Source: Desulfatiglandales bacterium (GTDB lineage: Bacteria; Desulfobacterota; DSM-4660; Desulfatiglandales; Desulfatiglandaceae). From it: 64,000 bases of DNA. Shown here one piece after another: positions 49,765 to 64,000 of the stretch. The notes beneath the pieces were generated by a model. It worked only from the letters and a program-made list of their open reading frames with translations. It searched no databases and was not told where the DNA came from. The first letter of the stretch is position 1. Every line of letters begins with the position of its first letter. Location of the stretch: positions 8,032,001-8,096,000 of the forward strand of contig OY759599.1 of the NCBI GenBank assembly GCA_963662465.1. The letters run 5' to 3'. Both the position numbers and the translations under genes were made by a program.

Positions 49765-50118
49765 GGGGGCGAAACGGTTTCGACGGGGATAACTGAAGCT
49801 TAGATTGCATACCGAGGTTCCGACTGCTCGTTAAACGGTTGGGCGAAACACAAACGCAGACGATTACGCGTATGCTCTAGCCGCATAAATGGCTAGCGTC
49901 TTACCGGTCTTTGCCTGCGAGACCGGATAAGGCGTCGACTAGTAGGCTAGCCGATCCCTTCTACCTGTGAAACGGTGAGGCGAAAATAAATACAGGTTAG
50001 TCTTTGGCCGGCTTGCTCAGTTGCGACCCCAAAGGCGAAGTTTAGATACTGGGCTATGTATGTAGAGATCTGAGTGGAATATTTTCGGACGCGGGTTCGA
50101 CTCCCGCCGCCTCCACCA
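49765..50118 (+). ncRNA. ssrA: tmRNA
   Basis: GGGGGCG/CGCCTCC-ACCA acceptor stem with G3.U, T-arm GGGTTCGACTCCC, tag ORF 49856-49888 (A)ADDYAYALAA*. Confidence 0.98.
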
Positions 50119-50205
50119 ATAATATTTCAAGCAATATCAATAGGTTGAGTCAATAAGGCAACCCCGAAATAGGCGATTGTGCCCAAAATTGTGCCTATTT
50201 TGTGT

Positions 50206-51510
50206 CTAAATCGGTTGTCTTTTTTCATTGGCGGCCTCCATATACTGTCTCTCAAAGGCGGAACCGTCTTGCCTTGTGAGGTTGGGGATATAGCGGCCAT
50301 ACGTTCTGTAGACCATGGAAGTGTCGACGTGCCCCAGGGTTCTGGCTACCCACTCCGGTGTTTCACCGGCCGCCAGCGCCCAGGATGCAAAGGTGTGTCG
50401 GGTTTCATACATACGTCGGTATCTAATGTCCGTTTTCTTCAAAACCCTTGCCCATACTTCCCTGAGCTTATCCTGGAGGATCGGCCTTCCCTCCGTATTT
50501 ACGAACACATACGGGCTATCAAGGTAATGATTTAGTGCCCTTTGCTGCTTCAAACATTTCTTAATGCTCGGCCTGATTTTGATACTCCGTCTGCTTTCTT
50601 CGGTCTTAAGGTCAGACTTTTCTCTGTTGCGCACCCTGCTTAACTCAATATGGATATACTCATTATCAATTGCTTTCCATTTGAGTGCAACCTGCTCAGA
50701 AGGCCTGAGGCCTGTTTGAATCGCGAAATCGAAGTAGGGTTTGTACCAGGGCAGCATGATTTTCATGACCGTTTCCCACTCCTCAAAGCTGAAGGGAAAT
50801 ATCCTGATTTTCCTCACTTTCGGGAGCTTGAGCCTTGAAAATGGATCCGGAAGATCGGTCCAGCCGTATTCATCTATCGCATCTCTTACGATTATCCGCA
50901 ACGGGATCATGACATTCTGAATTGTCTTTCCCGAAATGGGCTGTCCGTACCGGTTTTTCTTGCTCTTGAGATTCGCGACAAATTTTTTCATCCCAACCTT
51001 CGAGCAGATCTCCTTAAAAGATGTATCTTTAAAGTAGGGGAGATGGTGCATTTTGAGAATGGTGGTGTAGTCTTTGACTTGACTGAAATTCATCCCTGGT
51101 TCCATTTCATCCCACCACTTCTTTACATATTCCCCAAATAGCACCTCATCAGGGTCCTTTACGACGTTCTTTCCTTCCAGTATGGCAAAATACGCTTTCT
51201 TTTTGCTGCAAGGAAACCTTTCCGAAAATTCAAATACACCATTTTCAATTTCGGCTACTACGAGATCAAGCTGCTTACGAACGATATTTCGATTGGATGA
51301 GGTGTCTTTCAGACCGGACGGTTCGCGTACACGTTCATCCAGATACCGGAAATCCACCCACAATTTTCCACTACGGCTATAAACCCTTCCTTTTTTTCCC
51401 GCATTTAGCAGACTACGCTTTCTCTTTTTCTCTTCATCCGTGCGGTAACGGGATATTTCGATGACTTTTAATCTTTCCACAAAAAGCCCCCTTTCCGCTT
51501 CTTCAACCAC
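50206..51510 (-). CDS. Tyrosine integrase with N-terminal arm-binding domain
   Basis: TGLRPSE, YETRHTFAS, LGH, YRTY; N-terminal LWVDFRY...VRE. Confidence 0.95.
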   Translation of the reverse strand: MVEEAERGLFVERLKVIEISRYRTDEEKKRKRSLLNAGKKGRVYSRSGKLWVDFRYLDERVREPSGLKDTSSNRNIVRKQLDLVVAEIENGVFEFSERFPCSKKKAYFAILEGKNVVKDPDEVLFGEYVKKWWDEMEPGMNFSQVKDYTTILKMHHLPYFKDTSFKEICSKVGMKKFVANLKSKKNRYGQPISGKTIQNVMIPLRIIVRDAIDEYGWTDLPDPFSRLKLPKVRKIRIFPFSFEEWETVMKIMLPWYKPYFDFAIQTGLRPSEQVALKWKAIDNEYIHIELSRVRNREKSDLKTEESRRSIKIRPSIKKCLKQQRALNHYLDSPYVFVNTEGRPILQDKLREVWARVLKKTDIRYRRMYETRHTFASWALAAGETPEWVARTLGHVDTSMVYRTYGRYIPNLTRQDGSAFERQYMEAANEKRQPI

Positions 51511-51580
51511 CTCCTTTCTGTCCGGATATCACCATAACATGGCTAACACGAACCGGAAGAGGAGGTCAATAGAATAGAGG

Positions 51581-51808
51581 TCATATGTTTATCAAACCCT
51601 TTGGGCGATTGTCTGATCGAGGGTAACCACCGGAATTGCGGTGCAACCATTGTTGAACTTCGCTCCATACAAAAAGAAGTTTTCTGGATGTAGGCTTAAG
51701 ATAATGGACATTCTTTTTGAGTTCATTTTTCCAAACGAGATTCCGGATGGTACCGGGTGCCATCTTTATACGTTCGCTGAGTTCGACTGTGGTAAGATAC
51801 TCTTCCAT
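51581..51808 (-). CDS. Excisionase/AlpA-like HTH protein
   Basis: YLTTVELSERIKMAPGTIRN...LLFVWSEVQQWL; upstream of the integrase. Confidence 0.85.
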   Translation of the reverse strand: MEEYLTTVELSERIKMAPGTIRNLVWKNELKKNVHYLKPTSRKLLFVWSEVQQWLHRNSGGYPRSDNRPKGLINI

Positions 51809-51820
51809 TCCGATGCCTTT

Positions 51821-52897
51821 CTATGAAGAACTGTGTTTACGACCATTAGATTGGATCAGTGCCCGAGGATCTTCCTCAGAAGAAATCTGCTTTTTGCTAT
51901 CCTTCCATTGCCTAACTGAACAGAATACTTCACAAAAAGGCTCTATGGCTGCACTGCTACAACCATACCCTGAATATGAACTTTTAAAGGCATATGATGT
52001 CTGGGCCAAGATCTCCGACTCATGGATGACCTCTTTTCCATTGATAGGTCTGTTCTTCAATGCCCATGTCTTAAGCGCCGCTACTGCCATATCGTAGGGC
52101 AGACCCAGTCTCTTTAGATGTACTGCAAGCCTAAAACACCCAACCCTCTGGTATTGGGAAACGCCGTCCTTAAGAATCCTGACCGCACAAGGCGGAAGAG
52201 CGAATGTGCCCTCACCGGTCTTTTGTGAGGAGTGCTCCGAAGACAAGACCTCTTTTTTGGCCGATAGCTCGTTGAGCTCAATTACCTCATCCAGAACCCG
52301 TTCACTGGATCGCTCTACCGATTCAAGAAAGCTCCACTGGTCAGGGTATGGGCTAAACTCTGCGGGTTCTACAAAAGCGGTTTTCCCTTGGAGGACGAGC
52401 GGGCCGAACAAAGGGGCATTAATGAAATTGCCGTAGCGCATATCACCGCCCAGTTTGTCCTGCTTGGGGAATATCTCTGTTTGGGGCAGTTCGATTTCTT
52501 CGAGAATATGTTGCGCTACCATCCGTGCTTTGAGTGCCTGAACTCCATTTTCATCAAAAAAGATCCATACATGGTAGCCTTTCGATTTGCTGGCCTCGAC
52601 ATAGGCGGAAAGCCCATAATGCTTCGCCCTGCCGACAAATTCCGATGGTGCGGTACGGTCTTTTGTATCAAAATCAACGGCGATGGCTCGGGTTCGATCC
52701 TTGACCAGGAGGTACACTCCGTACGGTTGTTTCCCGGTAAGATGGGCCAGAAGCACCTCGTTCGTAACCGGTTCTTTCACCTGTCTTGCCCGGGCGGTTT
52801 TGAGATCATATGTTCCGTAGACGTTGCTAAGCCCGGAAAAACACGATCTGAAAATCGCCACCTTTTCTGTGTTCGTCCTTTTGCTGGTTGTGTCCAT
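51821..52897 (-). CDS. Archaeo-eukaryotic primase (AEP) with Cys-rich PriL-like C-terminal domain
   Basis: AVDFD (DxD), SKSKGYHVW, GNFINAP; C-terminal LPPC...GC....FC...C. Confidence 0.85.
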   Translation of the reverse strand: MDTTSKRTNTEKVAIFRSCFSGLSNVYGTYDLKTARARQVKEPVTNEVLLAHLTGKQPYGVYLLVKDRTRAIAVDFDTKDRTAPSEFVGRAKHYGLSAYVEASKSKGYHVWIFFDENGVQALKARMVAQHILEEIELPQTEIFPKQDKLGGDMRYGNFINAPLFGPLVLQGKTAFVEPAEFSPYPDQWSFLESVERSSERVLDEVIELNELSAKKEVLSSEHSSQKTGEGTFALPPCAVRILKDGVSQYQRVGCFRLAVHLKRLGLPYDMAVAALKTWALKNRPINGKEVIHESEILAQTSYAFKSSYSGYGCSSAAIEPFCEVFCSVRQWKDSKKQISSEEDPRALIQSNGRKHSSS

Positions 52898-52998
52898 TTT
52901 CTCCTCCGCTCAGTGAAAAGGCCTGAACGAACCTCCCTAACAGGAAGGTTCAAAGCTTTCACCACATTAAGCGGATGAAAAAAGGGATGCATTTCACC

Positions 52999-53574
52999 CT
53001 AAAGAGAGTTTTTAATGAAATACCATAAATGATGTGCCAGTCGGGATGGATTCAAGGCGAGCAAATCAGGGGGAAAGAATTCTGTATTTCGTTTCCGATA
53101 AACAGCCGCGATACGCAGTTTGGCATTCCAGTCCAGTTGGTCAACATTGTCGATGAAAACCCACTCCATATACTTTTCCCTCTCAACCTCCTTTATGGAT
53201 TCTGCCAATCGGGACAATATCAGCTCCATTCCCTCCAGTTTGGTGTCAGAGGCATCCATGAGCGCCACATCATAACCATCGTCGTGAGCGCCCGGGTAAT
53301 TTTTTCTGAGCAGGGAAACGGCCTCGGCAAGGGCCTCTTCGGTGGAAAGGTGTCGGGGAAGGCGAAGCCCGGTCTTGTAGACGTGGGAAACAAACCTGCC
53401 GATTATTCTATTGAAGTCACAATGGGAACAACCTTCTTCGGTCTCCCATCGAAATGCCTGTGCCGCCTGATCGATGGGGTCATCAATTTCATTAGCCATC
53501 TGTTTTCCATCGAGGAGCATCATGATGGCATCGATGGCCTTGTCTGCCGAATGATCGGTATCAGAACTCCTCAT
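52999..53574 (-). CDS. Hypothetical helical protein (unnamed domain, copy 1)
   Basis: GAGGAG SD + ATG at 53574; aligns by eye with the C-terminal part of 55780-57336 and the N-terminus of 53561-55756. Confidence 0.8.
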   Translation of the reverse strand: MRSSDTDHSADKAIDAIMMLLDGKQMANEIDDPIDQAAQAFRWETEEGCSHCDFNRIIGRFVSHVYKTGLRLPRHLSTEEALAEAVSLLRKNYPGAHDDGYDVALMDASDTKLEGMELILSRLAESIKEVEREKYMEWVFIDNVDQLDWNAKLRIAAVYRKRNTEFFPPDLLALNPSRLAHHLWYFIKNSL

Positions 53575-55756
53575 AGGTGAACTCCTCGGGTGCTTCACTT
53601 TGGACAGGGGTCAAAGGACTATGGTGGAGATCCCAACGCCGGTTCCTTTGCCGGATGAGATCACGGACCACATGCACCGGTTTGTAATATTGCCTGTAGG
53701 AGCGCTCTATAATGGCATCTCTAAAATGTCGCTCGGGAATTTCCAGAGGGCCGGACAACTCCACCTTTACGATGTCTATTCCGATACGGGCGACTGCCTG
53801 GCCAAGTTTTAGATTTACGAGGTCATCGCTTCGAACAAGGCCGTTAAGGTCCTTGGTCAAATAGCGGGCATCTTTACCGTCCACATTCATGATGATGGTC
53901 GTACCCACGCTGGATAAGGCGTCAATCTTCTTGGTGCCAAACTGGCTGAGGTAATGATGGGCCAAGGTAAGGCTGGCATTGAATTTTCTCGTCTCGGAAA
54001 TGAGGTCTTCCATTGCGGGGGTCAGGAAGCGATGGGCCTCATCTACATGAAGAAAAAACTGTTTACGTTCTTTTTCCTTGGTGTCACTCCGGCCCAAGGC
54101 GGCAAGATGGAAAAGCGATAAAATAAAACACCCCAGTATCTCCCGGACTTCTGAGCCTATGGTGGAAAGGTCTACCAGAAAAATCATTCCTTCGTCCATG
54201 ATCCGACGAAAATCGATGACGTTCTCCGGCTGGGACAGCATCAGGGCGACCGTGCCGGAGACGAGAAGCTTGCTCAGTTTATGTTTTGGAGGGCCAAGGG
54301 CCTCGTTGGAATAATTCAGGAAATCCTCTTGCCAGAATCGGAGGGCGGTCTGGTTATCCACCACCTTGATGATCTCTTTGCGGAGCCGCTCGCTCTCTTC
54401 GCTCCCGCGGCGAAGAAGGTCAGACAGATCCAAAAGAGTGCTGCCGGGTAGCTGAAGAAGGGCATAGAGGCCGTGCCTGAGCAGGTGCTCTAATCGATCC
54501 CCCCATCCCGTAACCACGCTCTTGAACGCAGCCACAATGTCATCTGCGGTACGGGTTACATCCTGCCCGCGATTTCTCTTGAGACAGTTCCACAAAGGAA
54601 CATGATCATGGTTTCCGGGATCAAAGTAGATCGTTTTTTCAACATGCTCTTCCTTTATCAGGCAAAGAAGATCTTCAATAAGGTCTCCATGGGGATCCAG
54701 CACGGCCACACCCATCCCCTTGTCAATGTCGTCTAATATCATTCGAGCCATGGTGGTGGATTTGGCGGTTCCGGGCCTGCCAATGATGTGGGTGGAACGG
54801 GAACGAGACATAAGGGGCATGCAGACCGGGGATTCAACCCCCGCATACTCGCATGTTCCGATAAGCGTGCCCTTATGGAGAGCGATATTTCGTACAGGGA
54901 GCGTTTCAAGGATGTCCATCGGCGCTTCCCGATATTCCAGGATTCCAACCGGAGGAATGTGTACAAGTCCGGCAAGCTCTGCAGAGTTGACAAGGAAGCC
55001 GGGACGATACGTCACGCCCAAGAGAAACATATCCATGATCCTTTCACTGGAGATAACCCTGCGGTATTGTGTATCGGTGATGGATTCAAGGGGACGACCG
55101 CCGTGCTGGAATACGCTCAAAAATGTAGAGATTGCCTTGAGATAGAAATCCCCAAATTCCTTCCCTGATATCATTCCCACTCGGATCGCAGCAGAATAGA
55201 AGGGTTTATCGTTGTGGGCTTTACATTCAACATCCTTGGCCATTTCCCGCAAATCCCCGGATGGCGCCTGCTGAAGGTGTTTTTGAGGGGTCTGAAGGCC
55301 GTTTAACAACTTGAGTGAATATTCCAGATCCAGAAGACTTTCCACATTCTGGTGCCAGCAGTGCTCAGGCCTGACGGGTTGCAGGAGTGCTTGATAAAAT
55401 CCAATCCCCGGAGGTTTTATTTCCATGAGGGCGGCGATCAGCGGTTTATAAGAGGAAACCTGGATTTCATCCGGTTGTGTAAGAATGATGTTTCCACCCT
55501 GACGTCTATATTCTTTCTCTAATATTTCCTTTGCCCGTCCCGCGGCCTCGGTGCGGGACATAACTCCCCCATGTACCACACACAGGCTGAAGTGGTAGCT
55601 GAAATAGTCGGCAATCACGTTGGTAAACTCGTCAAAATCTCCGACCGTGTTCTTGCTGAGAGAGAAATGCACGCGCGCTTCGTCGTGAGAATTCGTGACA
55701 TTCTTGGCAATTGCCAGCTCATCCAATGCTGCCACAAGGCTTTCCAATGATCCCAT
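53561..55756 (-). CDS. VirD4/TraD/HerA-FtsK-superfamily ATPase with fused N-terminal half-copy of the unnamed domain
   Basis: HIIGRPGTAKST (Walker A variant), VLDPHGDL, LHVDEAH (Walker B), RKFNASLTLAHHYLSQ. Confidence 0.85.
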   Translation of the reverse strand: MGSLESLVAALDELAIAKNVTNSHDEARVHFSLSKNTVGDFDEFTNVIADYFSYHFSLCVVHGGVMSRTEAAGRAKEILEKEYRRQGGNIILTQPDEIQVSSYKPLIAALMEIKPPGIGFYQALLQPVRPEHCWHQNVESLLDLEYSLKLLNGLQTPQKHLQQAPSGDLREMAKDVECKAHNDKPFYSAAIRVGMISGKEFGDFYLKAISTFLSVFQHGGRPLESITDTQYRRVISSERIMDMFLLGVTYRPGFLVNSAELAGLVHIPPVGILEYREAPMDILETLPVRNIALHKGTLIGTCEYAGVESPVCMPLMSRSRSTHIIGRPGTAKSTTMARMILDDIDKGMGVAVLDPHGDLIEDLLCLIKEEHVEKTIYFDPGNHDHVPLWNCLKRNRGQDVTRTADDIVAAFKSVVTGWGDRLEHLLRHGLYALLQLPGSTLLDLSDLLRRGSEESERLRKEIIKVVDNQTALRFWQEDFLNYSNEALGPPKHKLSKLLVSGTVALMLSQPENVIDFRRIMDEGMIFLVDLSTIGSEVREILGCFILSLFHLAALGRSDTKEKERKQFFLHVDEAHRFLTPAMEDLISETRKFNASLTLAHHYLSQFGTKKIDALSSVGTTIIMNVDGKDARYLTKDLNGLVRSDDLVNLKLGQAVARIGIDIVKVELSGPLEIPERHFRDAIIERSYRQYYKPVHVVRDLIRQRNRRWDLHHSPLTPVQSEAPEEFTYEEF

Positions 55757-55779
55757 GTATCCCCCCCTTTTTTATGTCC

Positions 55780-57336
55780 TTAGAGTGTTTTCAGCAGTTC
55801 CGAAACCCTGTCTAACGATTCCATATAGTAGAGTATAACCTCTTCCCAATGGAACGAAAGCTGTTCTGGCGATTTCCCCCTGAGGTCGACTGGCAGTTGC
55901 GGCCCTATCCGTTCCATAAAGACCTTCATTAACCTGATTTTTGCATCCTGGTCAAGAGGGTCTATTGAAACTTTGAGCACCATACCAGTGTGGTTTTTCA
56001 TTTTCTCGTGCTTCAAGTGTTCCGTCATGGAGTCAAACACCAGGCGCATTCCCCCGTTAATGCCGTGCTTTCCCTCTGCCAGTGCGGCATTGTACCCTCC
56101 TTTGCGTGCAAAAGCGGCTCTTACCAGTTCAATTGCCTCAGAAGCAAGAGCACTCCTCTTGAGGCTCCCTTCAGGCGAGCCGATGTGCCGGAAAATATGG
56201 CCATAAAAGGAGGTAATTGCATCGTTGAATGTGAAGCCGTCTTTGACCGTAACGGAATCAGGGGCATAACTGCCCCGGGCATTGTCGAAAGGGTGCCCGA
56301 TCTTTTTGGCCAGGTTTTCTTTGCTTAGTTCTGCCAGGAGCCTTTCAAAAAGCGCGTTTTCCGTGTCATGTTCATGCGATTCGGCGGCGCTGGCTGCATT
56401 GATTGCAAAAGGCCGCTCGCCAAAACCGTCACCAAACAAGGCCTTGTAGAGCTTCCGAACATCCTCTATATCATTTTTTTTGGCATGTTGTGTCAGCTGG
56501 ATACAAAACTCAGGTGAAACCAGTGGAAACAGGTCATCTAACGTTCGTGTGGAGGGAGGCAGGGAAACAACCAGTCGAAATAGTTGTTCACCGAAACGCT
56601 CGGGATAGCTCTGATTTTTGAGGTGAAAATCAACGTAGGCTTGGAGCAGCAGCCGGCCATTTTCGACCATACGATTCATAAGGGACCGCCCCAGGGCATC
56701 CCAGAACCTCTTTTCGTTTCCCTCAACAAACATGCCAACTGTCCTGCCTATGGGGTCTTGGGCCTCTCCGGGAGGGGTCTTCAAACCAAAAAAACCGGTC
56801 TTTAAGCTGCCGAGCACAATGGATGAATCTGTGGCGAAAATCCTCAAGGCATCGGACACATCACCCAAGGGGTAGATCTTTAAATCTCCTTTGTGACGGA
56901 GCAGACTCTCTTTTGCGGATTGATATTCAATTGGCGTCAGGACCTGTAAGGATCGGTCCATTTCAAGTTCCGGAAAGGCCTCGGCCTCCTTTTTAATGCG
57001 CTCATATTCCGCATTCCAATGGGGAATGCTCCTGAATGTGCTTATCAGGGTTTCCTCCTGTTCTTCATTGCCTGTGAACGTATCGGTGGCCAGATCATAG
57101 AGTAAACCGTAGATTACGTCCCTGATTTGTTGTATCCCCTGGTCGGCCCTTACACCGGATGGTTTGAGAGCGGCCCTGGTAAATTCCATGAACTGGCGAA
57201 AACCTTCTAAATATTCCGGTTGGCTGCCGAGTTCTCTGATCTCCTCGAAAGCGTCATCCATTGCGTCTCTTGTATTTACGTTGTTAAGGGCACGAGCAAT
57301 TATCGGAATAAAGTACAAATCCTTGTTATTTGTCAT
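55780..57336 (-). CDS. Hypothetical protein, C-terminal unnamed domain (copy 3)
   Basis: 518-aa ORF from ATG 57336 with purine-rich SD, co-oriented with the module. Confidence 0.8.
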   Translation of the reverse strand: MTNNKDLYFIPIIARALNNVNTRDAMDDAFEEIRELGSQPEYLEGFRQFMEFTRAALKPSGVRADQGIQQIRDVIYGLLYDLATDTFTGNEEQEETLISTFRSIPHWNAEYERIKKEAEAFPELEMDRSLQVLTPIEYQSAKESLLRHKGDLKIYPLGDVSDALRIFATDSSIVLGSLKTGFFGLKTPPGEAQDPIGRTVGMFVEGNEKRFWDALGRSLMNRMVENGRLLLQAYVDFHLKNQSYPERFGEQLFRLVVSLPPSTRTLDDLFPLVSPEFCIQLTQHAKKNDIEDVRKLYKALFGDGFGERPFAINAASAAESHEHDTENALFERLLAELSKENLAKKIGHPFDNARGSYAPDSVTVKDGFTFNDAITSFYGHIFRHIGSPEGSLKRSALASEAIELVRAAFARKGGYNAALAEGKHGINGGMRLVFDSMTEHLKHEKMKNHTGMVLKVSIDPLDQDAKIRLMKVFMERIGPQLPVDLRGKSPEQLSFHWEEVILYYMESLDRVSELLKTL

Positions 57337-57418
57337 TCCCTGAGCCCCTTTCACGTTCAATAAGATCCAGTACCTCTTCCAAACCGCCTGCAACACCGGA
57401 AGAGAGAACTGTTTCCAC

Positions 57419-57532
57419 ACCGTATCCACCATCTTACAGAGAGAGGCCTATATCGGGACCATGGTCTACAACAAGGTCAGCAAGGTCCCGGGCACCGAAA
57501 AAAGAAAGAGAAATCCGGAATCAGAATGGGTG
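57419..57532 (+). pseudogene. Large serine recombinase fragment
   Basis: TVSTILQREAYIGTMVYNK...KRNPESEWV matches the IL.N..Y.G..YNK...NP..EW recombinase-domain motif. Confidence 0.65.
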
Positions 57533-57638
57533 AATGGGATTGTTTACGAATCAACCTCCGGAGGATTGTTTCGCACGAAAAATTCAGGGGCCTGAATTGT
57601 TAGTGCAACAACAAAAAAATAACCGCGTAATCTGTGAA

Positions 57639-57988
57639 ATGCGCCTGTCGGAGATGCCGCTAAGCGGTGCCCCGTTAAATTGGTGGAACCACAGCGTATT
57701 TATCTGGGGTGCCAAGAAAAGCATCAAGAGGGCAATGGCCGCTGAGTGCAGCCGGAAACTGGGCTGTAAGGCCAAGCAGGAAACCCAACGACGATGTCGA
57801 CCTCTAAAAGATGGTGAAAGCCTTTAAGCAGGATTGCAGAAAATGGGCGATGGACCTTCTTTAACAACAGCGGAATCGGGATTCCCTGTGCATGCCTTAC
57901 GACAAGAGTATCGGGAGAGCCGTACAGTGGAAATCTCTACCTACGGTTCGACGAGGACCTCGGGATTAAACCCCCGAGGTTACTCTAC
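57639..57988 (+). mobile_element. ORF-less/internally deleted group II intron
   Basis: Domain V GAGCCGTACAGTGGAAATCTCTACCTACGGTTC (57917-57949); domain VI hairpin ACCTCGG...CCGAGGT with bulged A and TACTCTAC end; 5' ATGCGCC (GTGCG variant, boundary less sure). Confidence 0.8.
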
Positions 57989-58025
57989 CGGTTCACACAA
58001 CTAAATCCCTTTTTGCTTCTACCTG

Positions 58026-58061
58026 CCCCGTGAAACCGTTGTTGCAGTTGTTTCACTGGGG
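58026..58061. repeat. REP-like hairpin
   Basis: CCCCGTGAAAC...GTTTCACTGGGG inverted repeat. Confidence 0.6.
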
Positions 58062-58472
58062 TTTAACCGGGGTGCCAGAAACCCCTTGTCGTTAATAACC
58101 GGGTACAGACCTCAACATAACAACCACCAAGAGTCAACGGCAGATTTGACCCCATGCCCTTTGATGCACATCCCAAGGTCACTGAAGGTGTAAAACCACG
58201 ACCCGGCATCGAGTGGCAGGTGACTTCAATATAAGGACGTTATAACCAACACCCAAATAACGGCAATAAGGAAGGCCTGACCCCATCATCACAACCCTCT
58301 AACGCATCCAAATCCGTGTAACCCAAAGGGCGGAGCTGTCTTCAAGATTTGACTGCAAAACAAAACCAAAAACCGTGTCATCCGTGAAATCCGCGCCAAA
58401 AAAACTAAAGAAACCACCAACGTCCCCTGCACCAATTTGTGTTTCCGCTTTTCACATATGAGGTAACCAGTC

Positions 58473-58697
58473 ATGAAAAGTCGCATCTTTGATAAACATT
58501 TTCCGACGATTCTTGGGGCAGGCAGTGTAATGGAAATCTGGCCAACGGAAAATTATGATCGTTATATGCCAGACCCTATTCCGGCAAATAGCCTCAAGGG
58601 ATATTGGATGAACGTTAACTCGTACGTGTGCAAAGGCATTGTGCAATATGAGTTGGATTGCCATACCAGACTAGCCGAAAGTCTAAATGATGAATAA
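58473..58697 (+). CDS. Small hypothetical protein
   Basis: GAGGT SD, 74 aa, fills one inter-motif spacer; GAGSVMEIWP..Y...W..V pattern recalls small partners of DUF2335 genes. Confidence 0.6.
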   Translation: MKSRIFDKHFPTILGAGSVMEIWPTENYDRYMPDPIPANSLKGYWMNVNSYVCKGIVQYELDCHTRLAESLNDE

Positions 58698-58747
58698 TAA
58701 GCGAAGCCTGACCCCCTAATTTTATGGTCTCGTCCCCCTACCTTTCC

Positions 58748-58808
58748 GAATACGAACTGAAGAAGAGGGAGTTTAGGGATCGTACGAAAAGGTACGCTTC
58801 GGCTGTTA
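58748..58808 (+). pseudogene. Four-helix-bundle (23S IVP-like) protein N-terminal fragment
   Basis: ELKKREFRDRTKRYASAV, bounded by motifs on both sides. Confidence 0.5.
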
Positions 58809-58940
58809 GTGCCAACGTTCCCCATTACTCCCCAAATGACAAAGAGAGCAAAATACCCTCAGTCCATGAGAAATGCAGTTGCGTAGCAACGTCCCCCATT
58901 CCACAGACCTCAGGAAATTGGGAACCGCTATAAAAATCTG

Positions 58941-58969
58941 TTGTCATTTTGGCGTCATTAATTTATCCT
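58941..58969 (+). promoter_or_regulatory. sigma70-type promoter of the TA operon
   Basis: TTGTCA-17 bp-TATCCT, then AGGAGG SD. Confidence 0.6.
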
Positions 58970-58989
58970 GTTTGTAAAGAAGGAGGTGT

Positions 58990-59280
58990 ATGATGACGCT
59001 GAACAAAACAGAAGAAAGAATTCCTGCCCGAATGCCCCATGAGGTTTACGAGCGAATTGTTGCGGCTGCCCATACTGTCGGAGCCACACTGAACCAGTTT
59101 CTTGTTCAGGCGGCTATTGACAAAGCGAATGAAATTCTGGAAAGGGAGCGCATTATTTCTCTTACTTCAAAAGACGCAGATACGCTTTTTCATCTGATCG
59201 ATAATCCGCCTGAACCGAATGATCATCTCAAAGCAATTATGAATCAGAGAGAGGCAGAGGCGCTTTTGTGCCGGAAATAG
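58990..59280 (+). CDS. DUF1778 (TacA-like) RHH antitoxin
   Basis: RIPARM...I..AA...GATLNQFLVQAA...ISLT..D...F..IDNPPEPN. Confidence 0.92.
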   Translation: MMTLNKTEERIPARMPHEVYERIVAAAHTVGATLNQFLVQAAIDKANEILERERIISLTSKDADTLFHLIDNPPEPNDHLKAIMNQREAEALLCRK

Positions 59281-59771
59281 GTTCTCTTTTTCGCCATCAT
59301 GACCGGGCCGGATTTGATTGCGGAGTTCCAGCACTGAACGGTTTTCTCAAGTTCACGGCCAGGCAGCATGGTGATAAAGGGATTTCACGCACATTTGTTT
59401 TAACCGGGCCGGAAAACCCATCCATCATTCTGGGCTATTTTACACTGACACTCTGTGAAGTCAAAACAGAACATCTTCCAGCCTTATATGCCAGGAAATT
59501 TCCGAAACACGGGCTTCCAGCCGTTCGACTGGCCCGCCTGGCCGTTGACACGCGATTTCAGGGTCGTGGATATGGTGGACGTCTTCTTGCCGAAGCGATC
59601 CATCGGACGGTTTTGATTGCGGAACATGCAGGCGTGATTGGACTGTTTGTGGATGCGAAAGATGAAACTGCCTGTCTGTTTTATCAACGGTATGATTTTA
59701 AGTCTCTTCCGGACAATATCCGGAAATTGTTTCTGCCGATTGAAACCCTACGAAAAGGGTCCCTGCGATAA
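59268..59771 (+). CDS. GNAT acetyltransferase toxin (TacT/AtaT-like)
   Basis: HDRAGFDCG, LGYFTL, PAVRLARLAVD..FQGRGYG, VDAKDE.A..FY. Confidence 0.93.
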   Translation: MPEIGSLFRHHDRAGFDCGVPALNGFLKFTARQHGDKGISRTFVLTGPENPSIILGYFTLTLCEVKTEHLPALYARKFPKHGLPAVRLARLAVDTRFQGRGYGGRLLAEAIHRTVLIAEHAGVIGLFVDAKDETACLFYQRYDFKSLPDNIRKLFLPIETLRKGSLR

Positions 59772-59789
59772 CTTCAAAAAGAAGGACCC

Positions 59790-59952
59790 GGAAGCCATCA
59801 GGAAGAACCCGGAAAAGTTCCCGGCAGATTTTATATTCGAGTTGAACGAAAAGGAACAGGATTTTTTAAGGTCGAAAATTTCGACCATAAAGACAGGAAG
59901 GGGCAAGCACGGAAAATTTGCCACAAAGGCTTTCGCGGAACAAGGCATTTGA
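59790..59952 (+). pseudogene. ORF6N DNA-binding domain fragment
   Basis: AIRKNPEKFPADFIFELN...LRSKIST...GRG...AFAEQGI; lacks N- and C-termini. Confidence 0.8.
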
Positions 59953-60270
59953 TATTCGACAAAGGAAAAACAGGCGCGGTATGGAAAACACGGCAAATAG
60001 AAATATGAGAGAAACGCAAGAACGCATGGGCGTCCCCAAGGGCCCCAGAATATGCTGGTCAGCTGGGTGAGATCCATGCCCTGGGTTTATAATGCGTGCC
60101 CTAATCAAGTCCTTAACCCCTAAATCTTAAATCCTAATAACCACAATAAATAAACCCTGACCCCCTAATAAAAAATCCGTGTAATCCGTGAAATCCGCGC
60201 CAAAAAAAGAAAAAACAGTCATCCCCAACCCCAATAACGACAATAAAGAAAGCCTGACCCCCTGATTGTT

Positions 60271-60480
60271 ATGACCCATGTCGCAGGTTTTCCATTTTCC
60301 ATCGTGAACTTTCACAGTATTTATGCCGCGCCCAAAGATTATCTCCTGGAACTGGCCGGCAGACAGAACCTACGCATTCGGCTTCGGCCGCCATACCGGG
60401 AAAACCTGTCGCAGGCCTTTGGCAAGTATTTTATGCGTGTTGGGCTTCCTCTGGATATTCGAGCGTTTGCTCGCAGTTAG
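60271..60480 (+). pseudogene. C-terminal fragment of a hypothetical protein
   Basis: RIRLRPPYRENLSQAFGKYFMRVGLP looks like a conserved C-terminus; fills exactly one inter-motif spacer; no SD. Confidence 0.55.
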
Positions 60481-60547
60481 ATAGGATGTCCCCATTATAA
60501 TACAAGCGTAAACTAGTGAAACAAGCAACGTCCCCCATTATTTTTTT

Positions 60548-61288
60548 GACAGGTTCGAAATAGTTACATTCAAGTATCCAGTCGAATGTTGTACTTTGAC
60601 CTCCACCTCTCAGATTTATAGGAATTTCCTTTAAGTAGCCATTTACTATTATTTTTGTGCCAGGGCATGACCTCTTTTCAGATATTGGCGATATAAGGTC
60701 TTGTTTTAAGAAAATTTTCATTTTTTTTGGTTGTTCACCACCGTCAAGGGTTTCAATATCTTCTTCAATCGTCATATGTTGGGCATCTATCAATTCTTTA
60801 GAAAGCATTTTGAATTTACCCTTACGCCCACATCCACATCTTGAAGGCTCTCTAAATTTCTGTTCAAGTTGAAGAAGTGGTATGATATTTCCACATGAAG
60901 GGCATTCAAATTTTGATGTTACAACTTGAGGTCTAATGTCGCTTTTTTGTCGAATAGTTCCTTGAACACAAATGAATTTTTCTAAATGTTTGCTTCGTAA
61001 GTCTCTGATTCGCTTTTTCTGACTTTTTGGAATATTTTTAATCCTTACAATTACTTCAATATTATTTTTGATAGCGAGATCAAATAATGAAATTGATATA
61101 CTTACTGCCTTAAGGGATTCCTCAGGATTTTCAATCAGGTCTTCTGCTAAATTGATATTCTGTTTTGATATTTCATTAAAATCCATAACGAAATATCTAT
61201 CCCCTTTTCTTACAGATTCTATAAGGGTGTCATAATAGAGGATTTCTATTAATTTTCTGTATTCACCTATTTGTTCTTGGGTTTCCAT
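60548..61288 (-). pseudogene. mcm: Archaeal-type MCM helicase, N-terminal domain only (truncated before the AAA+ domain)
   Basis: DF..IS...LAEDLIENPEE, IRDLRSKHL, GTIRQKSDIRPQV, zinc finger FECPSCG...RCGCG, DAQ...EE...GGEQPK, PG.KI.V.G; similarity stops at NYFEPV, then reads through the repeat motif. Confidence 0.9.
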
Positions 61289-62034
61289 TGTATAATTTGT
61301 TTAGGAGATAATTTTCTATAGCATTCTTTATGCAGAAATACTCCATTGTACACTTCTGAATAATCTTTTGAGTCTTTGTGAATAGGGCGCTTACATTTAG
61401 CACAGTCACCTATCTTGTTTTTTTCTATATCAGCATCTTCATTGATTTCTCCGATTTTAGATTTGTATATTTTATTGAAAGAGATTTTTCTTCTTTCGAT
61501 ATTCGCATAGTCACTTTGATAAAGATATTTGCCATATATCTCATCTAAGAATTGTTCAACAACTGGTTTGAAATCATCAGAGAGTTTGAATAGTTTTGTT
61601 TTTTTATAACTTCTTTTGCCATTTGGATGAATCATATTCCATGTTTCTCTTATAGCTTTATTCTCATTAGAGTCTTCATGCAATTCTTCAACAATATTCT
61701 TCGTTTCAAAGTGAAATAATAAATCTCTTAGGTCTTTGCCATAACCTAGATTGAAATGCATTGTTAGTTCCCAAAGGCTTGAGACTCCAACGTTATATAG
61801 GACATAAACTAATTTGCTTTTCGTTTTATCAAGGAATATAGAAAGGATATCTCTGAAGTTTCTTTCAAAATTCAGATTTATATTTTGATCATTATGGATT
61901 TCGAGTTTTGAGACAAAATCACAGATTACACATACCCTTCTCTGAAATTTGTTTTCAGTGGGTGTGATTGTTGCCACCTCTTTCAAATTTATCCGGCCTT
62001 GCAGAGAAATCAGTAATTTCTTCAGGATCAACAA
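61267..62034 (-). CDS. Hypothetical AT-rich protein, possible winged helix plus C-terminal CxxC...HxxC zinc finger
   Basis: Long ORF overlapping the mcm start; CAKC...HKEC; start uncertain. Confidence 0.7.
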   Translation of the reverse strand: MLILKKLLISLQGRINLKEVATITPTENKFQRRVCVICDFVSKLEIHNDQNINLNFERNFRDILSIFLDKTKSKLVYVLYNVGVSSLWELTMHFNLGYGKDLRDLLFHFETKNIVEELHEDSNENKAIRETWNMIHPNGKRSYKKTKLFKLSDDFKPVVEQFLDEIYGKYLYQSDYANIERRKISFNKIYKSKIGEINEDADIEKNKIGDCAKCKRPIHKDSKDYSEVYNGVFLHKECYRKLSPKQIIQWKPKNK

Positions 62035-62185
62035 GCCAAATGAAATTAGATCCTTTTATGAATAGTTTATTATCTGAAGTAATATTTTTTAGAATTCCGA
62101 TTGCTTTTCTTTTATTCTTTCTTTCAGCAACAACAAACATTCCTATAAAGTTTCTGTACTGCTCAACTAAACTATCATTTGTCAA
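61955..62185 (-). CDS. Small hypothetical protein (possible Sm/SH3-like beta barrel)
   Basis: GAGGTG SD before TTG; FIG..V.......GIL..I pattern. Confidence 0.55.
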   Translation of the reverse strand: MTNDSLVEQYRNFIGMFVVAERKNKRKAIGILKNITSDNKLFIKGSNFIWLVDPEEITDFSARPDKFERGGNNHTH

Positions 62186-62283
62186 ATATACACCTCTAAA
62201 CTTATCTTATCTAAAACAGTAAAATATATATACTCATTACCCTTAGAATTCACTAAGTTGCTCAATCTTAATGTTTGAGTGAT

Positions 62284-62472
62284 TTAGCCTTGTTCTTTCA
62301 GGGTGGGATCAAGACCAGGGCTGGGTGCTCTGGTCTGCTTTTTTTTAATATCATCTGGAATATCTACAGTTACTATACTTCCTATTTCAACAACATCATT
62401 ATACATTGGTGGGACAGAAATAAATTTTCTTGTGTTTCCATGTCTATCCTTTCCAGCTTTGATTGCCTTTGC
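62284..62472 (-). pseudogene. 5'-truncated small ORF (AbrB-like?)
   Basis: AKAIKAGKDRHGNTRKFISVPP...EIGSIVTV; frame begins right at the putative IS end. Confidence 0.4.
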
Positions 62473-62683
62473 CTATAGCGCTCAGATAAACTGGTACAGG
62501 TCTGCTCAGATAAATTGATACACCAATTTTTTTTGGATTTCCCTACCTCTAAAGATAAAAACCCTTTACAGAAAAAGATACCCCTCGTAATACCCTATAA
62601 TTTTGAGACCAATCAAAAAGAAAGAGGTATCACGAGGGTATGCCCAATTACATCAGTGACATAAGTGAGCAACTGGCTTTTTT

Positions 62684-63235
62684 ATAATAGAAATCCAAGG
62701 CCATTTTCAATTTATTTCTGGCTGGTACCGGGATGGAGAGGTCCGTGGTCTTGTTGCTCGCTATTATTTTGTTGTTCGCTCGGTTCTCAAGGAGAAACCC
62801 CACCTTAAAAACTGCCTGACTCGTTGCAAGCACTGCGGCATCTTTTTTATCACCCATCCCCGGAATGCCGGCCGAAATAATCTTGGTTGCCCCTTTGGCT
62901 GCCGGGAAGCTCACCGCCGAAAAAAATCCACGGAGAGAAGTACGGAGTATTACCGTAATAAAGAAGGCAAGGAAAAGAAAAAGGCCTTAAACGAGAATCG
63001 CGGCAAAAAGGACAGCCCCCCGAAAGAAAAACAGGCGGAAACAATAGATGATGAACGTGAAGTGGTTGATGGCATTGTTCATCATGTTCGGATGGTTACG
63101 AGCTTGATTGAAGGTCGTAATGTAAGCCTGGATGAAATTTATCGCATGCTGAACAATCCGATGAGACAACACAGCATCGACTCTGCGGAAAAATCGTTTT
63201 ATGGTGGCCCTGGCTCTCGAAAAACTCCCCCGTGA
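62684..63235 (+). CDS. Cys-rich (CxxC...CPFGC) protein without a canonical start codon
   Basis: Open frame ...CLTRCKHCGIFFITHPRNAGR..LGCPFGCREAHRR...; missed by the ORF track; start position is a guess (ATA). Confidence 0.6.
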   Translation: MIEIQGHFQFISGWYRDGEVRGLVARYYFVVRSVLKEKPHLKNCLTRCKHCGIFFITHPRNAGRNNLGCPFGCREAHRRKKSTERSTEYYRNKEGKEKKKALNENRGKKDSPPKEKQAETIDDEREVVDGIVHHVRMVTSLIEGRNVSLDEIYRMLNNPMRQHSIDSAEKSFYGGPGSRKTPP

Positions 63236-63244
63236 GGAAGCAAA

Positions 63245-64000
63245 ATGGTCGATCAGATAGAAATTTCCAGTTTTGATTTACGATATGAGGATTGCCGTTT
63301 GAAATCAGCAGGGACGGAAAGAGCCCTTTTGACCTCTGTGTCGGAAAACGGTATCCGGGATCCGCTCCAAGGGGTGGACATTGAAGACCACAAAATTTTG
63401 CTCGATGGCTTCAAAAGATACCGGTGCGCAAAGAAATTGCATATCGAGATTGTGCCTTATCGGTCGATGGGGCGCGATGAGGCGAGTGGCATCATTGATC
63501 TGATCCGGTTATCAAACACAAAATCCCTTAACATTCTGGAGCAGGCCCGTTTAATCGATGAACTGAAGCGAGGTCACCAGATGAGTCATTCAGATATCGC
63601 CGGACTGCTTGAAAAAAGCAAATCCTGGGTCAGCATGCGTTGCGGCATTATGGGTGAGATGAGTGAAACCGTGAAGAAAGAAGTTTTTGCCGGAAAATTT
63701 CCGGTCTATTCATTTATGTATACTCTGCGGGGGTTCATACGTATGAACACCGTTAAAAAAAGTGAAATTGATGAATTTGTTCGGTCCGTGTCAGGCAAAA
63801 AGCTGAGCATACGGGATATTGATCTGTTGGCAAATGGCTATTTCAAGGGTTCGGAGGAATTCCGGGAACAAATCAGAACCGGCAATCTTTCCTGGGGACT
63901 TGAGCGATTAAAACATCATAGCGCAATAAGCGATGGTCTGAGTAAGCGGGAAAAAACCCATTTGAAAACCCTCGAAACCATCTTGAGATACATACAGCGA
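63245..64000 (+). CDS. ParB N-terminal-domain/HTH protein, 3'-partial
   Basis: GAGGAAG SD; GIRDPL, LLDGFKRYRC, IAGLLEKSKSWVS; open to window end. Confidence 0.85.
   Translation, partial: MVDQIEISSFDLRYEDCRLKSAGTERALLTSVSENGIRDPLQGVDIEDHKILLDGFKRYRCAKKLHIEIVPYRSMGRDEASGIIDLIRLSNTKSLNILEQARLIDELKRGHQMSHSDIAGLLEKSKSWVSMRCGIMGEMSETVKKEVFAGKFPVYSFMYTLRGFIRMNTVKKSEIDEFVRSVSGKKLSIRDIDLLANGYFKGSEEFREQIRTGNLSWGLERLKHHSAISDGLSKREKTHLKTLETILRYIQR

Follow-up and report, generated by a model that had tools for sequence, protein, structure and literature searches.

The stretch of DNA analyzed here (the window) comprises 64,000 nucleotides (nt) of a Desulfatiglandales bacterium (assembly GCA_963662465.1, contig OY759599.1, positions 8,032,001 to 8,096,000), and our subject is a block of AT-rich DNA near its right end that carries a truncated, archaeal-type gene for the helicase MCM. 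Inspection of base composition reveals that guanine-cytosine content (GC) falls from ~0.45-0.50 to 0.295-0.32 between ~60540 and 62470 of the window. This abrupt switch had been pointed out in the initial annotation and stands out genome-wide, with 31.9% GC in the block against a genome mean of 49.5% (standard deviation 4.5%, 1.5-kb windows), a difference of 18 points; 97 of 32,641 such windows lie at or below 34%. The features at the left junction and within the block are as follows, in window coordinates.

60501..60540, plus strand: host repeat "motif M" (ending ..CAACGTCCCCCATTA), directly abutting the archaeal DNA
60546..62472, strand given as ".": AT-rich archaeal-type DNA block, in-window part, 31.9% GC
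60431..61288, minus strand: chimeric 285-amino-acid (aa) open reading frame (ORF); residues 1-247 are an MCM N-terminal domain and residues 249-285 read-through of the bacterial flank
61267..61986, minus strand: ORF2, 239 aa (255 aa from an upstream TTG), whose 3' end overlaps the MCM start by 22 nt
61955..62185, minus strand: ORF3, 76 aa, intact here; in the second genomic copy an IS200-like element interrupts it
62284..62472, minus strand: ORF4, 68 aa in the second copy, its 5' end cut by a transposon at 62472/62473
62473..64000 (to window-equivalent 67496), plus strand: left part of a transposon-like element of 5,024 bp whose terminal inverted repeats (15 bp) are imperfect

The four co-oriented minus-strand ORFs of the initial annotation are all found in the ORF listing (60431-61288, 285 aa; 61267-62034; 61955-62185; 62284-62406), the fourth with the reservation that it exists on the minus strand but has lost its 5' end to the transposon insertion. 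Position 62473, previously taken as the right end of the foreign DNA, is instead the point where the 5,024-bp transposon inserted, and the block resumes beyond it, outside the window. With insertion elements removed, the whole block measures ~4.6 kb and contains the MCM N-domain, ORF2, ORF3, ORF4, a gene for a 403-aa protein and a 69-aa ORF. Its right edge is not sharp; GC climbs near window-equivalent 71100, ahead of a MarR-like gene. Ten other AT-rich patches of the genome were listed as possible further archaeal DNA, and both of those inspected (genome 68-75 kb and 4.785 Mb) proved to be unremarkable loci for polysaccharide synthesis.

The 285-aa ORF contains one part of an archaeal replicative helicase and no more. 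Pfam MCM_OB matches it at E 7.1e-24 and 84.4 bits (cut-off 24.8), and MCM_N stays sub-threshold (19.5 vs 24.9 bits). Matches at E ≤0.001 were obtained with 54 PDB sequences, the top ones being isolated MCM N-domain constructs; 1LTL, a solved MCM N-terminal domain, matches at E 1e-25, and 4POF aligns over ORF residues 31-249 with residues 41-255 of its 257-residue chain. These N-terminal-domain alignments, which together span ORF residues 18-249, run nearly end to end, and the helical, zinc and OB subdomains are therefore all present. Alignment with seven full-length MCM relatives shows the zinc cysteines (CPSC...CGCG) to be invariant. Homology ends at residue 247/248 (..NYFEPV); the seven relatives continue from there with NEDFGE.. 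and enter the AAA+ domain, and the 37 C-terminal residues of the ORF come from antisense read-through of bacterial flanking DNA that is not AT-rich. The AAA+ core (PF00493) has no match in the ORF, and the C-terminal winged helix (PF21120) is absent from the fragment and present in close full-length relatives according to precomputed Pfam results; in the 693-aa MCM of the metagenomic locus L011 it scores E 1.3e-5 and 25.6 bits, slightly below the 26.1-bit cut-off. The initial annotation was thus right that a complete MCM N-terminal domain stops at the linker before the AAA+ domain. A tblastn search of the 8.16-Mb genome with full-length relatives found no MCM ATPase remainder: two N-terminal copies match, and the sole other match is an unrelated P-loop, 28% identical. 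Because the gene breaks at the linker between N-domain and AAA+ domain and the genome holds no ATPase part, no helicase can be made. The exact 285-aa chimeric form has no member except the window's own in a search of 5.8 billion protein clusters, and in annotation this "MCM" ORF should carry the flag "truncated chimeric relic".

The affiliation of the fragment was examined by protein searches and phylogeny. Among longer proteins, 1,139 of 2,566 candidates match it at E ≤0.001; the organism names and identities given for this search rest on 120 listed hits. The best matches listed are full-length MCMs without an organism name (652-689 aa, 72-76% identity; P0001, P0002, P0004), followed by P0003 and P0005 at 61-62% and a long run at 51-58%. 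Organism names are attached to 13 of these hits, namely eight Woesearchaeota, three Nanoarchaeota, one "archaeon" and one Kosmotogaceae bacterium metagenome-assembled genome (MAG); the MCMs named Woesearchaeota or Nanoarchaeota are 51-56% identical to the fragment. When one genome per prokaryote species was searched, 13 loci matched at 45-56% identity, titled as six "uncultured Methanosarcinales" MAGs, three Woesearchaeota, one Nanoarchaeota, two Nanoarchaeia and one "Binatia bacterium"; five of these MAGs were inspected and hold just 0.6-1.7 Mb each. All 12 matching records in a phage collection are archaeal viruses (23-28% identity), and every displayed name among 37 matching records in a plasmid collection is archaeal (eight names not displayed; 23-31% identity among the matches listed). 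No bacterial relative of the fragment was present among the 12 phage records and the named plasmid records. Viral contigs gave two matches to the MCM alignment, at 37-41% identity, and for the ORF2 alignment none of 74 pattern matches was confirmed.

A quick IQ-TREE phylogeny places the fragment in a clade of four (Shimodaira-Hasegawa-like approximate likelihood ratio test, SH-aLRT, 99), nested within a clade of eight (100) and a clade of 14 (97), and the neighbours of these clades are rows labelled Woesearchaeota or Nanoarchaeota. The tree is midpoint-rooted and has 66 rows, made up of P0001-P0040, all organism-named hits and 15 translated loci, with 71 other listed hits omitted. Taken together, the 11 of 13 named hits that are Woesearchaeota or Nanoarchaeota, the nested tree position and the 33-35% GC of the relatives' contigs mark the fragment as DPANN-type. 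That is to say, neither the best hits, whose named members are mostly archaeal, nor the tree place the fragment among bacterial or phage MCM-like proteins, in agreement with the archaeal affiliation first proposed for it. Of the earlier proposal that the source was a DPANN genome or its mobile element, the archaeal-type identity is supported, but the choice between cell and mobile element is not settled. DPANN-type MCMs 50-52% identical to the fragment are also encoded on two high-GC contigs, L032 (DATILO010000016.1; 56% GC, in a "Binatia bacterium" MAG of only 0.9 Mb) and L026 (JAJPEB010000023.1; 66% GC, in a "Woesearchaeota" MAG), which may reflect mis-binning or further such cases.

Relatives of the block as a whole were found in metagenomes. 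A scan of metagenome contigs yielded three loci: L009 and L010 (3.5-kb contigs, 33-34% GC) share 78% nucleotide identity with the block over 1,577 bp, and L011 (a 73.8-kb contig, 35% GC) shares 68%. The gene order on L011, which runs from a 401-aa gene through a small ORF and an ORF2-like gene to a full MCM of 693 aa, is that of the block, with protein identities to the block counterparts of 62%, 56% and 64%. Neither ORF2 nor the 403-aa gene occurs in the flanks examined around the 13 species-representative MCM loci. The L011 stretch (20.7 kb of the 73.8-kb contig) contains no tRNA, and nearly all of its genes lack a known family. Its neighbourhood includes two weak HerA-like ATPases (sub-threshold in Pfam) and a weak terminase hint; comparison of 19 proteins with PHROGs gave only weak HNH and terminase hints, and a 734-aa protein with sub-threshold HerA-like Pfam hints has no PDB sequence match at E ≤0.1.

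Closer relatives still were observed in public sequencing runs. Four of 22 public runs were compared over 59600-63200, two probably from the source organism (X1, X3), one from a plastisphere metagenome (X4) and one from a freshwater metagenome (X5). Both X4 and X5 contain low-depth contigs that match the block from exactly 60546, differing from it in 5 of 529 and 16 of 548 letters (X4) and in 2 of 583 and 6 of 242 letters (X5); one X4 contig is only ~92% alike. An X4 contig extends to the left of 60546 for at least 255 unlike letters, which in reverse complement and in frame read ..NEDFGELKIS, the native MCM continuation. Since these contigs are nearly identical to the block and X4 continues into MCM sequence that the block lacks, we conclude that a full-length counterpart (92-99.7% identity, mostly at least 97%) exists outside this genome. 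The block itself is lineage-specific: a search of 40 relatives (10 congeneric, 14 from the same family and 16 from the same order; completeness 66-98%) did not recover the MCM fragment.

Prediction makes ORF2 a DNA-binding winged-helix protein with a zinc ribbon (CxxC...HxxC) at its C-terminus, on modest evidence that includes an AlphaFold2 model (predicted local distance difference test score 72.7, one of five models). A Foldseek search returned no match at E ≤0.001, the best being ArsR/MarR-type winged helix-turn-helix repressors at E 6e-3, and its atlas neighbours all score below 0.9. Five homologues of 53-79% identity were retrieved by a word-based search, two of which share a contig with a close MCM: the 73.8-kb contig (MCM P0003) and a 12.9-kb contig (MCM P0006). 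ORF2 is thus conserved beside MCM in the donor lineage. A family profile search found 64 representative clusters among 1.84 billion proteins, including one on the "Kosmotogaceae" contig that bears P0006 and one on a 541-kb contig. ORF3 is 87-92% identical to translated L010 and L009, and the full 68-aa form of ORF4, that of the second genomic copy, lies at L008 3469-3675; neither has a Pfam or PHROG match, and none of five block proteins matched PHROGs. The 403-aa protein, a membrane/coiled-coil protein, is 64% identical to its 401-aa counterpart on L011. The two genomic copies of its gene differ by four synonymous and four non-synonymous codons, by which selection is neither demonstrated nor excluded.

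Elsewhere in the bacterial chromosome, a gene encodes a Cdc6/Orc1-like ATPase (Cdc6_C 5.4e-23; L035 10018-11274, genome 144017-145273) and adjoins a SIR2 and HerA pair and toxin-antitoxin genes, at a local GC of 43-49%. A 25%-identical paralogue of the 403-aa protein lies near it (L035 6746-7906).

The block is cargo of an island integrated at a transfer-messenger RNA (tmRNA) gene, with an integrase gene next to the tmRNA 3' end and a direct repeat of that end. The island features within the window are as follows.

49765..50118, plus strand: tmRNA gene (ARAGORN; Rfam RF00023, 197 bits), whose 3' end is the island attachment site
50206..51510, minus strand: island tyrosine integrase (Phage_integrase 2e-17, Arm-DNA-bind_2 6e-17)
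51821-52897: AEP-type primase (Pfam AEP-TOTE 8.9e-35)
53561-55756: HerA/TrwB-like ATPase (Pfam TrwB_AAD_bind 4.8e-5)

The direct repeat is 34 bp long (the last 27 bp of the tmRNA and 7 bp beyond) and recurs at genome 29146, the start of a second island copy. Self-comparison of the genome, a single contig, reveals that window 50092-62116 corresponds to genome 29146-41170 with 99.99% identity over 12,025 bp. Two related tmRNA-linked islands accordingly stand in tandem, ~109 kb apart, each with an integrase, an AEP-TOTE primase and a HerA-like ATPase. Over the first 12 kb they are 99.99% identical; the rest of the block shows 98.6-99.1% identity and the sequence past it 94-96%, a gradient that suggests recent homogenisation of the left part. 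A TacA/GNAT toxin-antitoxin pair lies further along the island, and the block sits among toxin-antitoxin cargo.

Host insertion elements have entered both copies of the block. Four are present, a 621-bp IS200-like element, a 1,941-bp DDE_5 insertion sequence (IS), the 5,024-bp element with terminal inverted repeats and a 1,525-bp IS, each of which has one to three further genomic copies at ≥99.2% identity. The insertion sites differ between the copies: the second carries the IS200-like element (within ORF3, at the equivalent of 62116) and the DDE_5 IS, and the window copy carries the 5,024-bp element (at 62473) and the 1,525-bp IS. Target duplications are clear for the DDE_5 IS (TTAG) and the 5,024-bp element (CCTTTGC, 7 bp) and approximate for the 1,525-bp IS; none was seen for the IS200-like element. 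The 5,024-bp element carries a ParB/KorB-like gene from 63245 (weak Pfam matches), and its second copy, 99.6% identical, is located at genome 6813482-6818096. The genome contains the block together with its left junction in duplicate, and two copies with host elements at different sites indicate that the block is truly chromosomal.

Other island cargo was noted in passing. A match to group II intron domains V-VI at window 57915-57988, plus strand (35.3 bits; gathering score 40), has no intron ORF nearby and may represent an ORF-less or decayed intron. Two repeats, D1 (..AATAACGACAATAAGGAAAGCCTGACCCC) and D4 (three 9-mers, AATCCGTGN), occur at window 60130-60266 and 58250-58409; they recur in five of the ten same-genus genomes, often several per small contig, and reach a depth of 585 in the freshwater metagenome. 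Amid gene debris between TacT and the block lies a gene fragment (59830-59952; ..FELNEKEQDFLRSKISTIKTGRGKHGKFATKAFAEQGI), which we take to resemble an ORF6N-type domain.

At the left junction, donor homology ends at 60546, and the five letters between it and motif M (60541-60545) read TTTTT. Over 37 bp, motif M is 97% identical to genome 7039457-7039493. The sequence AACGTCCCCC at 60527-60536 is not enriched in the window as a 10-mer (four matches with at most one mismatch vs 4.8 expected). Sixteen copies of the 13-mer AACGTCCCCCATT are present genome-wide, 10 of them within one 100-kb bin at 7.0 Mb, and we therefore regard as real the terminal motif that the initial annotation had remarked on beside the MCM end. 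All 17 copies of the 10-mer CAACGTCCCC in the 7.0-Mb bin lie on one strand. The core CGTCCCC stands 15-40 nt upstream of the ribosome-binding sites or starts of small toxin-antitoxin genes, which form a one-directional array at 7.0 Mb, and the sequence that follows motif M varies from copy to copy. The repeat motif CGTCCCCCATTAC was also observed at window 58885-58900 and genome 6.998-7.089 Mb, where the preceding ~20 nt fall into several families. Motif M resembles the layout of an extracytoplasmic function (ECF)-type promoter (AAC-N15/16-CGTC), a candidate only, and we could not decide whether it is a promoter or a recombination site.

The block does not lie in an array beside an integron integrase. 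The island recombinase is a phage-type integrase with an arm-binding domain, and inspection of the block junctions by eye, without a covariance model, revealed no attC-like inverted R''/R' structure or GTTRRRY core. The block has five to six ORFs on both strands over 4.6 kb, whereas an integron cassette is a single promoterless ORF with an attC. At least five integron integrases above the NCBIfam cut-off are encoded in the genome, none of them in the island; the nearest TIGR02249 match, a partial one at genome 7978907-7979563, is ~113 kb away from the block. Empty sites were sought in two ways. The flank 58900-60545 matched just short repeats in five of ten same-genus genomes, and the sequence downstream of the paralogous motif at 7039493 is a 75% match to sequence 15 kb down the island, giving no clean empty site.

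We consider it probable that the block derives from a recent, non-functional capture of DNA from a DPANN-type archaeon or mobile element and is now decaying. The source would be an uncultured DPANN-type archaeon, and the captured piece of ~4.6 kb, from its chromosome or one of its mobile elements, would have comprised the 5' third of mcm, the translationally coupled gene for the predicted winged-helix/zinc-ribbon protein, two small genes and the gene for the 403-aa membrane/coiled-coil protein. From archaeon to bacterium is the direction we infer, with entry as naked or vectored DNA. The piece would then have been joined into the cargo of the tmRNA-integrated island, probably by illegitimate recombination, at a point adjoining the host repeat that, at other loci, stands ahead of toxin-antitoxin cassettes. 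Later, the whole island or just its left 12 kb may have been duplicated or homogenised into the tandem second island, after which both block copies would have been struck by different host insertion sequences. Judged from its sequence, the block is most likely a functionless recent passenger whose composition has not drifted to that of the host, and the donor may have been a DPANN lineage that has escaped binning, or a mobile element from such a lineage.

Several observations weigh against this reading. No member of the clade of 14 that holds the fragment is named as an archaeon, and one bears the label Kosmotogaceae bacterium; among species-representative genomes, the closest MCM reaches no more than 56% identity to the fragment. 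A search for the ORF2 family in 401 genomes sampled from the phylum to which a Woesearchaeota MAG belongs gave no match, a weak result without a positive control genome, nor was the family found in the five MAGs that hold the nearest species-representative MCMs. Among the language-model neighbours of the 403-aa protein are clusters with 50-76% bacterial membership, and the same protein has its 25%-identical paralogue elsewhere in the genome. Three or four block genes are intact per copy, and no short-read contig of the likely source runs (X1, X3) bridges 60540, the contigs ending within the 37-bp repeat at 60508-60533.

The first of these points bear on an alternative that we judge unlikely, in which the immediate donor was a bacterial mobile element or phage that already carried the archaeal-type mcm module, the cross-domain step being older and having occurred elsewhere. 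The Kosmotogaceae-labelled contig of 12.9 kb, with an MCM at 59% identity and an ORF2 homologue beside it, would fit such a donor, as would the Binatia-labelled contig (MCM at 52% identity, 56% GC), the absence of the ORF2 family from the 401 DPANN-phylum genomes, the bacterial clusters near the 403-aa protein and the surroundings of L011, which resemble a mobile element in their familyless genes, weak HerA-like ATPases and weak terminase hint. MAG labels on contigs of 9-13 kb are unreliable, however, and the "Binatia" genome amounts to only 0.9 Mb. The phage records that match the fragment are without exception archaeal viruses, the displayed plasmid names are all archaeal at ≤31% identity, and the relatives' contigs of 33-35% GC encode full archaeal-type MCMs with the archaeal winged helix. 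Furthermore, bacterial mobile-element MCMs are described as highly divergent in those parts of the published surveys drawn on here (PMC5862659).

Somewhat less likely again is that the block has been domesticated as a working module, in which the MCM N-ring, the predicted winged-helix protein and the membrane protein would work on the island's behalf, for example in DNA binding, partition or defence. Isolated archaeal MCM N-domains form rings and bind DNA, and they are stable enough for structures to have been solved. Both copies retain the MCM N-domain ORF, ORF2 and the 403-aa gene in intact form, and the block sits amid toxin-antitoxin cargo. Against domestication, insertions interrupt ORF3 in one copy and ORF4 in the other, an IS of 1.5 kb lies ~100 bp upstream of the 403-aa gene in one copy, and the 37-aa tail of the MCM ORF is antisense host read-through. 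The composition has not shifted toward that of the host, and the block is absent from the 40 relatives. A scan for promoters and terminators gave the same result for the block as for shuffled sequence, with 7 promoter-like sites vs 8.9 expected.

We also entertain a doubtful extension of the favoured capture reading, in which the 97-99.7% identity between DNA of a cultivable 8-Mb bacterium and that of an uncultured DPANN-type lineage would be the footprint of a direct physical link (an attached ectosymbiont, or a shared virus or vesicle), combined with a role of CGTCCCCCATTAC as the recombination site of a non-integron, cross-domain cassette-capture system.

A misjoining of archaeal reads into a bacterial contig is very improbable, since the break of source-run contigs in a repeat at the junction is outweighed by two copies with an identical junction, different host insertion elements and 1-1.4% divergence within the block. 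Read support for the junction, called for at the outset, is divided: a contig in X1 opens with 29 letters of the IS200 end and then runs through 62116-62472, joining the element to the block, but 60540 itself is crossed by no contig. Depth in X1 is 35 for the block contig, near the 28 of the two-copy island flank, and 13-15 at three other repeat-bearing loci, a weak argument, and X3, a second sample of the same organism, also contains parts of the block. In X3, one contig was seen to join 61010 directly to 60071, and depth is 0-7 over 61052-62261 vs ~35-40 on both sides, a pattern that suggests a rearranged or partly deleted variant of the block.

As a probable capture from a DPANN-type source, the block offers a rare direct trace of DNA flow from archaeon to bacterium, though probably a dead relic. 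Evidence for archaeon-to-bacterium transfer usually comes from old genes that already resemble the host in composition, whereas here the foreign DNA is still raw: it is low in GC, spans several genes and breaks in mid-gene, donor-type sequence can be found for it, and host insertion elements date its residence. It thus gives a specific and testable instance of DPANN-type DNA arriving in a bacterial chromosome, and a starting point from which the donor may be traced. Among top-ranked literature matches, judged by title and abstract in a search that was not thorough, no earlier report of a DPANN-type mcm fragment in a bacterial chromosome was found.

Comparison with known systems places the block between several of them. 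The archaeal MCM N-domain constructs of Methanothermobacter (1LTL) and Pyrococcus furiosus (4POF/4POG) contain the same three-part domain with the same boundaries as the fragment. In contrast to those constructs, the truncation here is natural, is fused to 37 unrelated residues and occurs in a bacterium without the MCM ATPase part. With tmRNA (ssrA) islands, the present island shares the tyrosine integrase by the tmRNA 3' end, the direct repeat of that end and variable cargo; it departs from their usual form in that the cargo includes raw archaeal DNA and that two islands stand in tandem ~109 kb apart with their left 12 kb 99.99% identical.

Integron-mediated recruitment of archaeal gene cassettes by bacteria has been described by Ghaly et al. 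2022 (PMC9668308), where, in the portion relevant here, archaeal attCs, including those of Nanoarchaeota, are 95-100% identical to attCs in bacteria, Desulfobacterota included. The present case resembles that process in its route from archaeon to bacterium, in the integron integrases encoded in the genome and in a junction that abuts a repeat punctuating a cassette-like toxin-antitoxin array. Unlike integron cassettes, the block is multi-gene and includes a truncated gene, has no attC by eye and no integron integrase in its island, and borders a motif that is not a GTTRRRY core.

Finally, MCM-like helicases are known from bacterial phages and integrative elements, such as the Bacillus cereus prophage MCM and SCCmec Cch (Kazlauskas et al. 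2018, PMC5862659). The sections of that study used here trace bacterial MCM-family helicases to phages and integrative plasmids, describe them as highly divergent and judge recent archaeal transfer unlikely. To the view, as far as those sections state it, that all bacterial MCM sequences diverged anciently, the block is a counter-example, but as a fragment and not a working helicase. It shares with these systems an MCM-family sequence in a bacterial mobile element, and the present island also has an AEP-type primase. Whereas the bacterial mobile-element MCMs have active, divergent ATPase cores, the fragment has no ATPase core and instead retains a canonical archaeal N-domain, 72-76% identical to full archaeal-type MCMs.

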